Of a stretch of DNA of 64,000 nt, positions 8,376-19,847 are shown one piece after another (the first letter of the stretch is position 1; each line of letters opens with the position of its first letter). The stretch lies in the NCBI GenBank assembly GCA_038143065.1, contig JAYQLI010000035.1, positions 96,001 to 160,000 on the forward strand, written 5' to 3'. This DNA comes from Rhodospirillales bacterium. GTDB taxonomy: Bacteria > Pseudomonadota > Alphaproteobacteria > Bin95. The notes beneath the pieces are model-generated. The model did no database searches. It saw only the letters and a list, made by a program, of their open reading frames with translations, and was not told the origin of the DNA. Both the position numbers and the translations under genes were made by a program.

Positions 8376-9664
8376 ATGCAGACAAATTTTTCTATAGCGC
8401 AGCTTTCCGACCCTGATATGGCCGCTTCGGAGTCGATTCTGAGGTCGTGTGTTCACTGTGGGTTTTGCACTGCTACTTGCCCCACATACCTCCTTCTTGG
8501 CGATGAATTAGACAGCCCTAGAGGACGCATATATCAAATAAAAGATATGTTGGAGTCTGGTCTTCCAGCCCCAAAAACGGTCGTGAAGCACATTGATCGC
8601 TGTCTTTCATGCCTCTCATGTATGACGACATGCCCTTCAGGCGTTCATTATCAGCACTTAGTGGATCATGGCAGGGCGTACGTTAATAAGACCTTCCAGC
8701 GACCATTCTTTGATAGAGCCTTCCGTTCAATCCTTTCATGGGTTTTACCTTACCCAGATCGTTTTCGAGCAGCTTTAGTGCTTGCTTGGCTACTTCGTCC
8801 TTTTGGATCATTAGTTTCTGGGCGTGTAGGTGCGATGCTGCGCCTAGTGCCTAAACGGATTCCACCTCGCTCACCGATCGAAGGCCCCAAAGTCCACAAA
8901 ACAGAAGGTGCCACAGTTAAACGTGTGGCTCTGCTTGCGGGCTGTGCTCAACAGGTGCTTAGTCCTTCCATCAATGAATCTACAATTCGTCTACTCAATC
9001 GTCATGGAGTAGAGGTCGTTACAGCTAAAGGAGCAGGTTGCTGCGGTGCTCTTGTCCATCACATGGGCCGGGCAGAGGAGGGACACGAAGCTGCGCGTCG
9101 TAATGTTGATGCGTGGACGCGGGAAATCGAGGCTGACGGCTTAGATGCAATTATAATCAACGCCTCGGGTTGTGGCACAAGCGTGAAAGATTATGGTTTT
9201 ATGCTGCGGAATGACCCAGCGTATGCCAGCAATGCTGAGCGGGTTTCGGCAATAACTAGAGATATCGTTGAATTTATGTCGGACCTAGGTCTGCAAAATT
9301 CCAAGCCCCTAAGCCATTGAAATTGGCTTATCATTCAGCTTGCTCCATGCAGCACGGTCAGCAATTAAAAGATGAGCCTAAAGCGCTTCTAGAGGATGCA
9401 GGATTTCAGGTAGATACACCAGCAGAGTCTCATATCTGCTGCGGGTCAGCTGGGGTTTATAATATTATGCAACCCCAGTTTGCTGAGCAGTTAAAAGCCA
9501 GAAAAGCGGGTAACCTCTCACGTCTCAAACCTGATGTTGTAGTAGCAGGAAATATTGGTTGTATTAGCCAGTTGCAGGGAGCGATTGATGCGCCAGTGCT
9601 CCATACTGTTGAGTTGTTGGACTGGGCAACTGGTGGGCCAAAACCGGAAAAACTTGATTATTAA
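8376..9664 (+). CDS. glcF: Glycolate oxidase iron-sulfur subunit, frameshift ~9310
   Basis: MQTNF start, CVHCGFCTATCP and CLSCLSCMTTCP 4Fe-4S motifs, CCG domains (CCGAL, CCGSAG), C-terminal HTVELLDWATGGP. Confidence 0.93.
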
Positions 9665-12449: not shown

Positions 12450-12909
12450 CAAGCATCTCCTTTGAGGTGGGGTGTAGAGAGACTTTCAAATCGACTTATC
12501 AATTGTGTAGTGAATTCAATCATTGCATTAACCTGCGCTGGGTCGAGGTCGCCGAGCACTTCTTGCCGAAGTTCAGCCGCAATAGTATCTACTTCTTGGA
12601 ATCGAGCCCGTCCGTGTTTGGTAAGGTGTATTAGGTTGGCTCGGCGGTCATCTGGATTTGGGTTGCGATCAACCAGGCCAGCTTCCTCTAACTGGTCAAT
12701 TTGGCGTACAAGTGTTGCACCTGAAATTCCCGCCCGCGCTGCAAGATCAAGCTGAGTTATTCCATCAACCTTGTCATTTAGGTGCATGAGCAAAATCCAA
12801 CGGGCTTGTGAGAGCCCAAGGGGCGCAATCTGTTGTCTAGTTCAGTCCGCCAGAGTCTTGCGAGAAGTCCAGTTTGTCTGCCCAAATTTGTTGGAGGATT
12901 GCGGGCCAT
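12449..12909 (-). CDS. MarR/SlyA-family transcriptional regulator, frameshift ~12840
   Basis: LGLSQARWILLMHL...ITQLDLA...ATLVRQIDQLEEAGLV...DDRRANLIHLT. N-terminus MARNPPTNLGRQTGLLARLWR is in another frame. First gene of the MarR-EmrA-EmrB operon. Confidence 0.88.
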
Positions 12910-12922
12910 TACAGTTACTCTT

Positions 12923-12979
12923 TTATGATCCTAATTATTAGCTACCTATATGTTAGTATCCTAATAATTAGGGTGCAAT
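12923..12979. promoter_or_regulatory. Putative MarR/SlyA operator array: four TTA-N6-TAA-like boxes at 15-bp period
   Basis: TTATGATCCTAA (12923), TTAGCTACCTAT (12938), TTAGTATCCTAA (12953), TTAGGGTGCAAT (12968). Includes the perfect inverted repeat CCTAATTATTAG/CTAATAATTAGG. Confidence 0.65.
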
Positions 12980-13045
12980 TCAAGGAGGTCAACTCTCGCA
13001 AGCTTATTGTAGCCACTTAGTCGTTAATATGACCGCATCCTGATG

Positions 13046-13086
13046 CCGAGAAGTTTGTATGGCAGCTGCCATCACAAGCATTCCGG
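13046..13086 (-). other. Long imperfect hairpin with 14-bp perfect palindrome in the 3' UTR of the UGSC gene
   Basis: ATGGCAGCTGCCAT (13059-13072) flanked by TTGT/ACAA and CCG/CGG arms. No U-tract. Confidence 0.45.
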
Positions 13087-13098
13087 GAAAAAATTATT

Positions 13099-13623
13099 TC
13101 ATTTATTCCCCGCCTGAATCCTCTCAAGAATTTTTGGCGCTGCTTCGAATGCAAGGGTCTTAAGCTCATCAGCAGTCTTATTTTGGATTGGGTGTGGCGT
13201 CCAAACAATTGCTGGAGCAAAACCCAATGCCTTACCTTGGGCTTCCGCTGCTTGTTGAAACTCCACTGTTGCTGTCGCACAGCCAGGGATCCCACGAACG
13301 TCGAGTTGGTGAATGTCATGCAAACTGCACGACGTACACGATCCTCAATCTGCTAAGGCTTCGACGACAATGTCACAACTTTCAACAATATCTTGCAGTA
13401 TAGATTCTGGTGCCGGTTTAGTATGCGTTGGCTTTTTAAATCTTATTGTTTTAACGCCTGCAGCCTGAATCAAGGGCTCTAGAGCGTCCATAAATTCATC
13501 AGAACGCTCTTTTGAGATAGATAAGAGACCGACAGTTTTTCCTGATATGTCGGGAGGAGGAGGGCGTCTTTCTCTGAGCGAAGAAGCGCTCTCTGCTGTA
13601 GGGTCTCGCATAGCATATGTCAT
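13099..13623 (-). CDS. UGSC-family selenoprotein (174 aa), in-frame TGA at 13345-13347 read as selenocysteine
   Basis: ORFs 13345..13623 and 13099..13323 share a frame: GCC TTA GCA GAT TGA GGA TCG TGT ACG TCG TGC = ALAD-U-GSCTSC, then HD..RGIP..PHP. A SECIS-like hairpin follows. Confidence 0.88.
13315..13333 (-). promoter_or_regulatory. Bacterial SECIS element
   Basis: UGA + 11 nt (GGAUCGUGUAC) + GUCGUGCA-GUU-UGCAUGAC, an 8-bp stem with one G-U pair and an apical GU. Geometry is close to the E. coli fdhF SECIS (UGCAGGUCUGCA apex). Confidence 0.75.
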
Positions 13624-13627
13624 AGGT

Positions 13628-15069
13628 TCAATACTCCTCTAATGCTTGAGTTACCGGTCGAACTTCTGCATTGTTTCGTCCGCCGGTCCAACCACCAATA
13701 ATTGCTGACATCAAAGCTCCAGGCCCCCTGCTCTAACAACCAAAAGTCCGCCTGGATGAAATTTGTCGATCATCCCATTAGAGTCAGAGTACTTTTCTGC
13801 CTGAGCAGGCGTAATTCCAAGAGGGTGACCCGCACCTTCTAATATTTCTGATGTGGGACGCTTGAGAGCCTTATAAAGCCCATCTTCAATCTCTGCTCGG
13901 CCCCAACCATCTTTTCTGAAGATTTCATAGTGGTTAGGAGAAATGACTAGGATTGCATTGCCCCATCGTGCAAGTCGTGGGTGGTTAACGCTCCATAACT
14001 GCATTGCCATAGACTCACAGAGTTCTTCAGCTGTTCTACTTTTCTGGTCAACGAAGCCAGTTACGCCATCAGCATGGAATAGAGTGACCGCTGAAGCACC
14101 ACTGCTAACACCTCTTGCCTGAGCTAGTGGGATCCAATCCTCATCGCCTTCATCCTCCGCAAAGCAAAAAGTATATTTGCCAGGTTGTCCGAGGCACGCT
14201 CTGTCAATTTCTTGCGGACGACCGCCACCAACATTTCTGATAATCAATTGGAATGCACGCCCAATAGTGGCATTTGCTCGATTACCCTGGCCAAGAGCAT
14301 TTCCACCAGAATTCATGCCGATACGGCGTGAAATAGGGCCATTCACCAAGATAAGTGGGCCAGAGAATGCAAGGGTGCAAAGAAGTCCATGCATTGCAAA
14401 CTCTGGCTCAAGCGCTGCTTTCATGGCTCCAAGTAGCACAGGGAAGTATTCGGGGCGGCAGCCTGCCATAACGGCATTAACAGCAGCCTTTTCAACAGTG
14501 CAAGGAACAAGGTTTGGGGGAATTAATCCTATAATCTCGTCAGCTTTTCGGGTTGTACCCGCTAACATTCTTGCCACCCTTAAATCGGTGGGAGGTGTTA
14601 CTGGAAGGCCATCAGTCCAGCCTCGATCGAACGCTACCTCCATGGGATCATTGTCGTCATCGACTTCTATCGCGCGCGAATTAAGTACTATTTCACCTGC
14701 CTTAAGGGCTAGTCTTTCTACTGCTCCAGGGGCAACATTTAGAGCTCCGCAGCCTGGCATATTTTCAGGCATTGAAGCCCCAAGATTATCTATCCCAGTA
14801 ATTTCTCTCCAGTCGTTCTTATTCCAGCCATAGACGCGTGAAGTCTCTGTTGTTTGGTTGAATGCAATAACGGTTGGAACTATTTCAATTCTAAGCCTAT
14901 GACTTTCCAGCAATTCATCATCGTGGCGAGGGTTTAGGCCACGTGGAAACTCCGGTATGTCCTGAGTAATAACTTCAAGATCCAATCCTGCTGCACGCAT
15001 TTCCGCTAATGCAGGGACTGCTAGGCGGCACGTTGGACAATCTTCTTTAACAACCGCGACAAAACGCAT
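13628..15069 (-). CDS. UGSC-associated protein: N-terminal thioredoxin-like CxxC domain fused to a large uncharacterised domain, frameshift in G-run ~13725
   Basis: VKEDCPTC...IEIVPT (Trx-like, cis-Pro), then PGCG, GWTDGLPVTPPT, NAVMAGCRPEY, NRANATIGRA, GQPGKY. The true C-terminus GPGALMSAIIGGW...ALEEY* ends 4 nt before the UGSC start. Confidence 0.8.
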
Positions 15070-15158
15070 TAGCTGTCCTCCTCCAGGCAACGATAGCCCC
15101 AGACGAAATGGAGCGCTACATTGTTAATGTTAACTATCAAGCGAAGCGGATAAGAAAA

Positions 15159-16427
15159 ATGGATTTTGGCTATTCAGATAAGGTGAAGCAGCTACAAGAG
15201 CGTGTTTCGGACTTTATGGCGAGGGAGATTGTTCCTCGCGATAAGGAGTGGCACGAGCTAACTGAATCCGGTGTTTTCCCTCCTGCTTTTTGTGAAGATA
15301 TTAAATCAAAAGCTAAAGCAGAGGGACTTTGGAATTTCTTCTTACCAAATCTTCCCGAAGAAGCTCCAGGTCAAGGCCTTAGCAATCTCGAGTATGCCCC
15401 GCTTGCTGAAATAATGGGTCGTATTTACTGGTCGCCCGAGATGTTCAACTGCAATGCACCGGACACGGGAAATATGGAAGTATTTCACATGTTCGGTACG
15501 CCTGAGCAGAAAGATACCTATCTGAAGCCCCTTTTAGAGGGCGAAATCCGCTCGGCTTTTTGTATGACGGAGCCTGAAGTGGCTTCCTCCGATGCCACGA
15601 ACGTCCAAACGAGAATTGAAAAGGATGGGAATGAATATGTCATAAATGGGCGTAAGTGGTTCATTACTAATGCTGAGCATCCCAACCTTGGCGTGATGAT
15701 AGTTATGGGTAAGACCGATCCGAGTGCAGAGACCCACCGTCAACAGTCACAGGTCATTGTGGATCCCAATACACCAGGTGTTTCTATCCGCAGAAATTTG
15801 CCTGTAATGCATCACATTAGCCCTGAGGGACACTGCGAGGTCGTCTTCGATAATGTCAGAGTACCGACAACTAACATCATTGCCGAAGAGGGTGATGGAT
15901 TCATGATTGCCCAGGCACGCCTAGGTCCGGGGCGGATCCACCACTGCATGCGTACCATAGGTCAGTGTGAGGTGGCTTTGGAGCTTATGATAGAACGTGG
16001 GTTGAACCGGAATACCTTCGGCAAAAGAACTATTGATCACGATACTGTAAGAGAGGCTGTAGCACTGTCGCGCCAAGAGATAGATATGGCTCGGCTCTTG
16101 GTTCTTCGTGCAGCTTGGATGATCGACACAGAAGGGCCGCGTGCCGCTCGCATGGAAGTGTCAAAGATTAAGGTAGTTGCCGCGAGACTTCAGACGACGG
16201 TCGTCAACCGCGCCATGCAAGTATTTGGTGCTATGGGCCTAACGCCTGATACTCCACTTTCATACCTTTGGACTTGGGGTAGGGCACTTCAGTTTATTGA
16301 TGGACCAGACGAAGTGCACTTGCGTACAATTGCTCGTAGCCTTGTCCGAAATCATGAAAAGAATGGTATGAGCGAGGTGATGCCTCACTTCTATCGTGTT
16401 TCAAAGGACTTCGACGAAAGTCGTTAA
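15159..16427 (+). CDS. Acyl-CoA dehydrogenase (ACAD10/11, FadE2-like)
   Basis: FNCNAPDTGNME, SAFCMTEPEVASSDATN, INGRKW, AQARLGPGRIHHCMR, DGPDEVH. Confidence 0.93.
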   Translation: MDFGYSDKVKQLQERVSDFMAREIVPRDKEWHELTESGVFPPAFCEDIKSKAKAEGLWNFFLPNLPEEAPGQGLSNLEYAPLAEIMGRIYWSPEMFNCNAPDTGNMEVFHMFGTPEQKDTYLKPLLEGEIRSAFCMTEPEVASSDATNVQTRIEKDGNEYVINGRKWFITNAEHPNLGVMIVMGKTDPSAETHRQQSQVIVDPNTPGVSIRRNLPVMHHISPEGHCEVVFDNVRVPTTNIIAEEGDGFMIAQARLGPGRIHHCMRTIGQCEVALELMIERGLNRNTFGKRTIDHDTVREAVALSRQEIDMARLLVLRAAWMIDTEGPRAARMEVSKIKVVAARLQTTVVNRAMQVFGAMGLTPDTPLSYLWTWGRALQFIDGPDEVHLRTIARSLVRNHEKNGMSEVMPHFYRVSKDFDESR

Positions 16428-18650: not shown

Positions 18651-19847
18651 TCAAAGATAGCGAGCAATCAACTCTTTCATAATTTCATTCGTGCCCCCGT
18701 ATATTTTTTGTACTCTCGCGTCAGTCCACATTCTAGCAATTGGGTACTCTGACATGTAACCATATCCGCCATGGAGCTGAACACATAAATCAAGAACTTC
18801 GTTTTGTTTCTGGCTAGCCCACCACTTAGCCATTGAGGCAACTTTTGAATCCAGATTGCCTGCTAAAAGACGTTCTACGCAATCATCTATGAATACTCTT
18901 GCTACACGCGCTTCCGTCACAGCTTCAGCAAGCCTGTGTTTTGTATTTTGAAAATCAAATATGGCTTGTCCAAAGGCGCGCCTCGACTTCACATATTGTA
19001 AAGTAAGGTCGAGCCCAGTCTCCATAGATGCCACAGCCCCGACTGCTATTAGGAGCCGTTCCTGCGGTAATTGGTTCATGAGTTGGTAAAACCCTTGGCC
19101 TTCCTCTCCTCCAAGAATTGCATCTGAATTGACAAGAACATCTTCGAAGAACAACTCAGACGTATCTGCCGCATGCATTCCTATTTTCTCTAGGTTTCTG
19201 CCACGGGAAACTCCGGGCAGGGTCATATCTACGAGTATTAGGGAAATTCCTTTACCCCGTGCCTCTGGATCTGTTTTCGCCACCAGAATTATTAGATCTG
19301 CATTTTGACCGTTCGTGATAAAAGTTTTTTGGCCATTTATGAGAAATCCATTTTCTTGTTTTACCGCCCGAGTTTTGACTGACTGCAAGTCAGACCCAGT
19401 TCCCGGTTCCGTCATCCCTATAGCGCAGATTACTTCACCGGATACTAATTTGGGGAGCCATAAACGCTTTTGATCTTCAGTCCCAAACTCCAAGAGGTAG
19501 TGGGCACAAATGCCCGAGTGGACTGCATCGCCAAATGCAGCCCCTAAAGTAATTCGCTCTAATTCTTCTAACCACGCAAAATGGTGAGCAAGCGATCCTC
19601 CACCTCCGCCATACTCTTCTGGAACTGACGGACAAAGAAACCCAGCTGATCCTGCGGCACGCCAAGCGGCCTTGTCTATAAAACCCTGACTAGTCCAACG
19701 CTCAATATGTGGTTGAAATTCCGACTCTAAAAATTTCCTAGCAACGTTTCGAAAAATGCTGACGTCGTCTATTTCCCAACTCGGTTGATAATCACTAGTA
19801 AAATCAAAATTCATCCCACCGCCACCTTGCGTGTCACTGTCGCGCAT
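18651..19847 (-). CDS. Acyl-CoA dehydrogenase (LCAD-like)
   Basis: IGMTEPGTGSDL, NGQKTFITNG, DTSELFF, LPQERL, QLHGGYGYM, IYGGTNEIMK. Confidence 0.93.
   Translation of the reverse strand: MRDSDTQGGGGMNFDFTSDYQPSWEIDDVSIFRNVARKFLESEFQPHIERWTSQGFIDKAAWRAAGSAGFLCPSVPEEYGGGGGSLAHHFAWLEELERITLGAAFGDAVHSGICAHYLLEFGTEDQKRLWLPKLVSGEVICAIGMTEPGTGSDLQSVKTRAVKQENGFLINGQKTFITNGQNADLIILVAKTDPEARGKGISLILVDMTLPGVSRGRNLEKIGMHAADTSELFFEDVLVNSDAILGGEEGQGFYQLMNQLPQERLLIAVGAVASMETGLDLTLQYVKSRRAFGQAIFDFQNTKHRLAEAVTEARVARVFIDDCVERLLAGNLDSKVASMAKWWASQKQNEVLDLCVQLHGGYGYMSEYPIARMWTDARVQKIYGGTNEIMKELIARYL

Follow-up and report, generated by a model that had tools for sequence, protein, structure and literature searches.

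Introduction

In the Global Ocean Sampling data, UGSC proteins belong to the most abundant groups of selenoproteins, with 255 selenocysteine (Sec, U) forms and 21 cysteine (Cys) homologues according to the available text of Zhang and Gladyshev (2008; PMC2398784), which also records a UGSC protein fused to a domain termed 'Unknown_1'. The available portions of two reviews, from 2022 and 2026, carry the family with its function uncharacterised (PMC9312934, PMC13188914). The gene analysed here lies on the minus strand at 13099..13623 of a 64,000-nucleotide stretch of a Rhodospirillales bacterium genome (assembly GCA_038143065.1, contig JAYQLI010000035.1, positions 96,001 to 160,000; hereafter the window), and an in-frame UGA within it is predicted to encode Sec. 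Like the family described in the available text of PMC2398784, it has a full-length profile match, Sec as the first residue of U-G-S-C, Cys homologues, and a marine and estuarine occurrence. It is thus an additional member of a family in print since at least 2008 and represents no new kind of biology; what is added is a flavodoxin-like model and a near-obligate link with a gene that joins a thioredoxin-like domain to a core of no described family.

Two other groups of selenoproteins invite comparison. Selenoprotein B of glycine and proline reductases, GrdB/PrdB (PF07355), works with a larger catalytic partner. It shares with UGSC proteins a Sec in the first position of a U-x-x-C motif (the PrdB motif in Table 2 of the available text of PMC2398784). 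No homology between the two was detected: none of 24 UGSC members matched PF07355 at E up to 10. The thioredoxin-fold selenoproteins (Trx-like, Prx-like and SelW-like) resemble the protein in having Sec, with Cys three residues on, at the start of a helix, and in a presumed thiol/selenol redox chemistry. No thioredoxin, however, stands among the rows listed for the UGSC model, whereas in the same searches the N-terminal domain of the partner matches only thioredoxins.

Bacterial Sec insertion relies on a selenocysteine insertion sequence (SECIS) following the UGA. The published bacterial model (bSECIS), as given in the available portion of PMC13188914, has a loop of 3–9 nt, an upper stem of 4–16 bp, a distance of 16–37 nt from UGA to loop and a minimum free energy (MFE) of −7.5 kcal/mol or lower, with a G in the first two loop positions that is usually followed by G or U.

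Results

An in-frame UGA joins two listed frames into one predicted gene

In the open reading frame (ORF) listing of the window, a 92-aa ORF (13345..13623, minus strand) and a 74-aa ORF (13099..13323, minus strand) share a common frame. When TGA is taken as U, 13623..13099 (minus strand) translates into one frame of 174 residues, ...VEALAD-U-GSCTSCSLHD..., in which the only other stop is the terminal TGA and the motif D-U-G-S-C occupies residues 92–96. A sequence-only reading of the window had claimed two same-frame ORFs split by one TGA, together encoding one 174-aa protein of the named UGSC selenoprotein family, and each part of that claim was borne out. The Pfam profile UGSC (PF24696; cut-off 25 bits) matched the read-through protein with 124.5 bits and E = 6.6e-36. 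Residues 5–169 align with profile positions 2–170 of 172 in one stretch across both halves, so that the match runs through the TGA. The NCBIfam model NF041046, 'UGSC family (seleno)protein' (cut-off 125 bits), scored 124.1 bits with C replacing U. The two ORFs are therefore predicted, from the sequence, to be the halves of one real Sec-encoding gene. The sequence-only reading had called this gene hidden, which holds for naive ORF callers but not overall, since curated models already describe the (seleno)protein family.

The UGA column holds Sec or Cys across the family

PF24696 was matched by all 24 members of a family alignment (A2), in which C(U)93, G94, S95 and C96 are invariant columns. 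A six-frame search with the same profile found five UGSC copies in the window's own genome, four of them with exactly one in-frame TGA, and matches in 41 of 61 genomes (the own genome plus 60 relatives), including all 36 of the same family. The 150 UGSC matches listed in those 61 genomes have exactly one in-frame TGA each; 43 further matches fell outside this count. At the level of loci examined in the own genome and relatives, the TGA stands in the D/C-U-G-S-C motif column in 34 of 35, the exception being a fused copy (L025) with neither Sec nor Cys at the motif position.

Homologues from further afield carry Cys in this column. A scan of named genomes with the pattern [GA]DCGSC... returned 206 Cys-form relative stretches from Alphaproteobacteria, Actinomycetes, haloarchaea and others; Cys forms were returned because the search tools write U as C. 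Cys occupies the TGA column in all 80 Cys-form loci examined. A protein-database search gave 86 hits: D-C-G-S-C-T-S-C is present in 36 of the 39 hits of at least 150 aa, and 46 of the 47 shorter hits stop at ...LAD, the residue directly before the UGA. Together, the Cys in the long hits and the LAD ends of the short ones indicate that the column is Sec or Cys and that Sec forms are truncated by gene callers, as the sequence-only reading had proposed. Relatives and database homologues alike have Sec or Cys at the TGA position, and not Trp.

The same reading had described a UxxCxxC protein. The motif is present here, but the description does not extend to the whole family, as Trp takes the place of the third Cys in 76 of the 80 Cys-form loci and in two of the 34 Sec-form ones, which leaves only U/C-x-x-C conserved. 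On these alignments the predicted family signature is U/C-G-S-C, and UxxCxxC is a subgroup trait.

A candidate SECIS hairpin follows the UGA

Beyond an 11-nt spacer (13344..13334) after the TGA, the transcript can fold as GUCGUGCA-GUU-UGCAUGAC at 13333..13315 (minus strand), an 8-bp stem including one G-U pair and closed by the 3-nt loop GUU. A hairpin with an apical GU exactly 11 nt past the UGA had been claimed, and this is its location. When the bSECIS model was applied by hand, all values of the hairpin lay within the published ranges (loop 3 nt, stem 8 bp, 19 nt from the UGA, −9.1 kcal/mol). Like the consensus behind bSECISearch in the available portion of PMC13188914, it is an in-coding stem-loop directly after the UGA with a loop opening G then U; its loop differs in being about as short as the model allows. 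An Rfam search of 12900-13800 at E up to 10 returned two chance-level hits and no SECIS family.

The claimed structural support was evident in comparison with shuffled sequences. The 19-nt hairpin alone has z = −4.29, and none of 200 shuffles folded as well. The 48 nt starting at the UGA have an MFE of −16.5 kcal/mol (z = −2.58; reached by 3 of 200 shuffles), and the fold of a 66-nt stretch is unremarkable (z = −1.0; reached by 33 of 200). The terminal TGA is followed by no comparable structure (Table 1).

As the stem also encodes the conserved peptide S-C-S-L-H-D, RNA-level constraint was examined via synonymous codons. In Sec-form loci the codons within stem and loop are fixed: TGC for Cys (31/31), AGT for Ser (31/31), TTG for Leu (31/31), CAT for His (32/32) and GAC for Asp (32/33). 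Upstream of the stem, codons of the same loci vary; the Cys at +3 is TGT in 18 and TGC in 16, and the Ser at +2 is written with six codons. Cys forms use AGC for Ser, mostly CAC for His, and other codons at the hairpin positions. Hairpins with six or more base pairs that begin 8–14 nt past the codon were found in all 21 distinct Sec forms (mean MFE −20.3) and in 42 of 76 Cys forms (mean MFE −14.5, despite a higher GC content), and are absent from L057, which is among the two closest Cys orthologues. One relative (L024) encodes a different peptide there (TPAVLRAS) and yet has an unrelated perfect stem at the same site; in two others (L022 and L037) a change of Cys to Trp is compensated on the opposite arm by GC/CG swaps. 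Covariation stood above shuffled alignments (0.154 against 0.121; reached by 1 of 500), though it is modest, as weighed below. The frozen synonymous codons and the contrast with the Cys forms are stronger RNA evidence than covariation.

A further observation comes from metagenome contigs that diverge from the window. In three of four runs compared, the 35 nt of UGA, spacer and hairpin (13313-13347) are the sole matching part of such contigs, which differ on both sides and come from other UGSC genes, of other organisms or paralogues. Among UGSC genes that have otherwise diverged, it stands out as an island conserved at the nucleotide level.

The genome encodes the Sec machinery and uses TGA as an ordinary stop

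The sequence-only reading implied that the organism decodes Sec, and profile searches together with ARAGORN located selA, selB, selC and selD in the genome, all above curated cut-offs. The genes selB (435 bits) and selA (496 bits) are adjacent, selA being an intact 429-aa ORF whose stop was overrun by the profile match; selD scored 280 bits and tRNA-Sec 71.5 bits, with the anticodon TCA assigned by ARAGORN. TGA ends 76 of 242 open frames of at least 300 codons in 600 kb and is thus an ordinary stop in this genome. The organism is predicted on these grounds to use Sec, and four of its UGSC genes are of the Sec type.

The selD locus (L010:1393-2919, G000:C35) has features of its own. The encoded protein, of 508 aa, extends far N-terminally of its SelD part, which opens with a C-G-G-C motif, and it resembles the Ndh-SelD fusions with CxxC that are common in ocean samples according to the available text of PMC2398784. 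Elsewhere in the genome, a weak selD-family match (G000:C33:66207-66692, E = 2.3e-4) has one in-frame TGA.

Independent metagenomes keep the TGA

Among the matches listed, the UGSC stretch or part of it occurs in 20 sequencing runs from 13 studies, mostly marine and estuarine. Four runs from four studies were compared and showed no other letter at 13345-13347. Two DNA contigs from different studies (X5, record 12; X6, record 17) cover the stretch and keep the TGA, and two contigs from RNA libraries (X15, record 8; X19, record 10) bridge the UGA codon and keep it as well. The TGA was therefore upheld in independent metagenome contigs, none of which has other letters there. The proposal that this break, unlike others, is not an indel also stood: it is a substitution-type codon, and the other breaks in the assembly are indels.

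The UGSC protein is predicted to have a flavodoxin-like fold

An AlphaFold2 model built from 24 sequences (predicted local distance difference test, pLDDT, 88; predicted template modelling score, pTM, 0.82) consists of five alternating strand-helix units forming one domain, with U93 between the strand 85–91 and the helix 94–109. Foldseek and VIA-wide rows for the model are flavodoxin, CheY, Rossmann and TIR-like folds with flat scores (TM 0.4–0.5; Z 9.5–11.7), and thioredoxin is absent among the best 50 rows of each search. A 'likely Trx-like fold' was proposed for UGSC in the available text of PMC2398784; with no thioredoxin among the rows listed, that proposal gets no support here, although a thioredoxin match may lie beyond them. 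Comparison of the UGSC profile with Protein Data Bank (PDB) sequences gave only hits of E ~0.5. The model suggests that the UGSC protein is a small flavodoxin-like alpha/beta domain.

The upstream partner joins a thioredoxin-like domain to an undescribed core

The gene upstream of UGSC is listed as a 459-aa ORF (15090..13711, minus strand) with C18-P-T-C21 in its numbering. Contigs X5 and X6 have one base more than the window after 13723, and the next frame past 13711 encodes a conserved tail (GALMSAIIGGWTGG...EEY) running to the stop given in Table 1. This tail matches the end of a 97%-identical, 480-aa homologue (P0002), and partner homologues are ~480 aa long in general. The extra base in two metagenomes and the homologous tail in the next frame indicate that this assembly lacks one base near 13723 and that the two genes are 4 nt apart, the partner stop lying 4 nt before the UGSC ATG. 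The base missing at 13700-13740 of the window is probably an assembly indel.

The partner ORF matched no Pfam or NCBIfam model and no PDB sequence, and a search of the PDB with its profile likewise gave none. Its model (pLDDT 93.9) matches thioredoxins over residues ~4–101 (Z 8.4–10.3), including the CPTC motif. In both whole-partner fold searches the match lists were filled by thioredoxins, so that the remaining core of ~330 aa was effectively outside the comparison. The core belongs to a very large family: of 8,000 candidates scored, 7,992 fall within it, and 5,359 representatives (50% clustering) were counted at E up to 0.001. Its motifs are GWTDGLPVxPPT, MAGC, RANATIGRA and TxCFAE, and Cys211 and Cys309 are nearly invariant. 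Searching a protein atlas with the core gave, as leads only, unnamed clusters at 0.93, one cluster named 'Thiol-disulfide oxidoreductase family protein', and a cluster at 0.87 with PF24696 in 16% of its members.

The core and UGSC are almost always found together. The core lies in the flanks of, or is fused with, UGSC in all five loci of the own genome, 29 of 30 loci of relatives and 79 of 80 Cys-form loci (113 of 115). The own genome has seven core copies: five adjoin the five UGSC domains or are fused with them, one is an additional copy downstream of the L137 pair, and one is an orphan. Direct UGSC-core fusions are seen in L024 (578 aa), L025 and L037. Across 42 representatives, the fusion partners of the core include UGSC (5), Redoxin/AhpC (6), thioredoxin-like domains (up to 6) and FeThRed_B, the ferredoxin-thioredoxin reductase (FTR) beta chain (1). 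The available text of PMC2398784 describes a fusion to 'Unknown_1', possibly the same domain, where core fusions are found here.

Two of these core copies depart from the pattern. The fused protein of L025 (L139:6349-7998, G000:C36) has its U/C-G-S-C site replaced (…CDGGTAAS…), and its core also lacks the first conserved Cys (…MTGMPPD…); it is possibly a redox-dead paralogue. The orphan (L140:5963-7144, in the G000:C35:2590711-2591460 region) is a 393-aa ORF with no UGSC domain detected beside it, and adjoins Rieske ring-hydroxylating dioxygenase genes and a resistance-nodulation-division (RND) efflux pump.

Feature coordinates and wider neighbourhood

Table 1. Features of the UGSC locus, in window coordinates.
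Feature	Position	Strand	Remarks
Partner gene	13628..15069	-	Thioredoxin-like N-terminal domain and ~330-aa core of no described family; stop 13630..13628
UGSC-family selenoprotein gene (predicted)	13099..13623	-	174 codons and terminal stop; start ATG 13623..13621; Sec = residue 93
In-frame UGA read as Sec (U93; predicted), opening U-G-S-C	13345..13347	-	TGA column in relatives, Cys in homologues
True stop TGA of UGSC gene	13099..13101	-	UGSC profile ends there; downstream fold −6.6 kcal/mol, z +0.24
Shine-Dalgarno-like AGAGGAG (putative)	13634..13640	-	10 nt upstream of ATG, within 3' end of upstream gene; read from sequence
SECIS apical hairpin (candidate)	13315..13333	-	5' arm 13333..13326, loop GUU 13325..13323, 3' arm 13322..13315
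Extended SECIS region (candidate)	13300..13347	-	UGA and flanks able to pair as weak lower stem round apical hairpin

Beyond the pair, a gene for a thioredoxin reductase (TrxR)-like flavoprotein recurs in some lineages. The gene string of L137 is UGSC, core, core and then a 300-aa TrxR-like flavoprotein with CAFC; that of L056, which with L057 makes up the two closest Cys orthologues, is TrxR-like, Trx-core, UGSC. By tblastn, a TrxR-like gene was found in 6 and an acyl-CoA dehydrogenase gene in 7 of 80 Cys-form loci, and neither was found in the 30 loci of relatives, where the flanks covered 1.5 kb only. ORF clustering of 85 contexts for a third recurrent gene gave, beyond the pair, no cluster in more than 18 loci, spurious GC-rich frames dominating the result.

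Several other genes lie near the own UGSC loci. Acyl-CoA dehydrogenase genes are near two of the five UGSC pairs of the own genome (window 15108-16427, plus strand, and 18651-19847, minus strand; L138:9002-10156), an electron transfer flavoprotein-quinone oxidoreductase (ETF-QO) gene is near one, and efflux genes (MarR, an EmrA-like adaptor and a major facilitator superfamily, MFS, transporter) lie downstream. In other parts of the genome (L137:10119-11110, L138:5047-5972 and L139:3820-5177), genes for Ldh_2 (malate/L-lactate dehydrogenase), a GHMP kinase and a UbiD-like protein each appear as two or three consecutive ORFs, a splitting that fits frequent indel errors in the assembly and probably corresponds to the other breaks of the sequence-only reading. 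At 8376-9664 (plus strand) of the window, an ORF with a 4Fe-4S dicluster and a CCG domain overlaps one with a second CCG domain (GlcF/HdrD-like); this pair may be one gene split by an indel.

Discussion

Taken jointly, the results very probably describe a 174-residue UGSC selenoprotein whose UGA93 is decoded through the organism's own Sec machinery and the SECIS hairpin, and which is likely to act as a redox partner of the upstream gene's product. In this scheme the UGA (13347..13345) would be decoded as Sec by the SelA, SelB, SelD and tRNA-Sec of the genome, the decoding signal being the hairpin 11 nt past it with G-U topping the 8-bp stem. Sec93 and Cys96, placed where a beta-strand runs into a helix, would cycle between the selenol/thiol and selenenylsulfide states, and the protein would exchange reducing equivalents, in one direction or the other, with the protein encoded 4 nt upstream. 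Sec93 and Cys96 would there serve the cysteines of the neighbouring enzyme, which has a CPTC domain and the nearly invariant Cys211 and Cys309. The fused thioredoxin domain and, in some lineages, the TrxR-like flavoprotein may complete a chain from NAD(P)H. Gene order, fusions and conserved cysteines make it likely that the UGSC protein is a selenol/thiol redox partner of the upstream enzyme.

The fusions of the core to UGSC, thioredoxin-like, redoxin-like or FTR-beta modules suggest that it is a catalytic client to which UGSC is one of several interchangeable thiol/selenol donors. A broader proposal, for and against which we judge the balance to be even, is that UGSC, instead of being a free-standing thioredoxin-like antioxidant, is the dedicated selenol/thiol subunit of an oxidoreductase in two parts, widespread and so far undescribed. 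The core would recruit UGSC, thioredoxin-like, redoxin-like or FTR-beta donors according to lineage, and UGSC would be a flavodoxin-like fold whose U/CxxC site evolved independently of thioredoxins.

Several points weigh against a redox selenoprotein decoded in this way. Selenium has yet to be demonstrated experimentally in any UGSC protein, this one included, the contigs from RNA libraries are no proof of transcription, and the putative redox-relay role is drawn from gene order, fusions and conserved Cys. The NF041046 score falls 0.9 bits below the curated cut-off; this and the extra thioredoxin-like domain carried by the partner in this subgroup are differences from the wider family, though neither is essential. 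Counts over the 34 Sec-form loci are not independent, since a single bacterial family contributes most of them. The covariation is modest: partners slid by +3 score higher (0.176), and only three cells of the apical stem are changed on both sides. The stem encodes a conserved peptide, and the hairpin potential kept by more than half of the Cys forms (42/76) indicates that the coding sequence itself accounts for some of the pairing. The lower stems of relatives are longer and vary in register, and a lower SECIS stem in one fixed register, which pairs poorly across subgroups, was rejected. Finally, few loci have a TrxR-like gene (6 of 80) or an acyl-CoA dehydrogenase gene (7 of 80) nearby.

Of the other explanations, the one that fares best, although still improbable, concerns function: U-x-x-C-x-x-C might bind a metal or metalloid, as part of a carrier or sensor, instead of forming a redox-cycling selenenylsulfide. 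Three chalcogen ligands do fall within seven residues in this subgroup, and the downstream efflux genes (MarR, EmrA-like adaptor, MFS transporter) would suit such a role. The third ligand, however, is the residue replaced by Trp in nearly all Cys forms (76/80) and in 2 of 34 Sec forms, so that only U/C-x-x-C is conserved, and UGSC is constantly accompanied by thiol-disulfide modules and by a core whose cysteines are conserved.

Less probable is that the TGA is a true stop separating independent 92-aa and 74-aa proteins, the hairpin being a coding by-product, a translational pause or an attenuator. Gene callers give exactly these halves, Cys forms keep some hairpin potential, and the 66-nt fold is unexceptional. 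Against this, the family profile crosses the TGA in one stretch, Cys homologues are single polypeptides, and the model forms one five-strand domain (pLDDT 88); moreover, translation of the second ORF would have to begin at a TTG within the hairpin loop, leaving the invariant G-S-C untranslated.

An equally slight chance attaches to readthrough of the UGA without Sec, whether as Trp or Gly through an altered code or as Cys or Trp through near-cognate tRNAs. Selenium-limited cells misread Sec codons, which is the only point in its favour, and nothing specific to this locus was found. It is opposed by the 76 of 242 long frames that TGA ends, and by the UGSC gene's own end at TGA; by the presence of tRNA-Sec (TCA) with selA, selB and selD; and by homologues with Cys at the column and not Trp or Gly.

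The least credible and already largely refuted alternative, a nonsense mutation or a sequencing or assembly error in a Cys-form gene that would leave a pseudogene or artefact, can appeal to an assembly that is error-prone (the base missing near 13723, several genes elsewhere split into two or three ORFs), but those breaks are indels whereas the TGA is a substitution-type codon, the same TGA recurs in four runs from four studies, in three further paralogues of the own genome and in all 150 matches listed, and the hairpin and frozen codons are specific to the TGA forms.

The reading of the locus as a Sec-encoding UGSC gene first means a correction of annotation: two short 'hypothetical' ORFs are one predicted selenoprotein gene. 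Catalogues hold the Sec forms of this subgroup as halves (46 of 47 short hits), so that family counts taken from predicted proteomes lean towards Cys forms. The all but constant pairing with a very large undescribed family offers a concrete way into the function of what is one of the most common aquatic selenoproteins.

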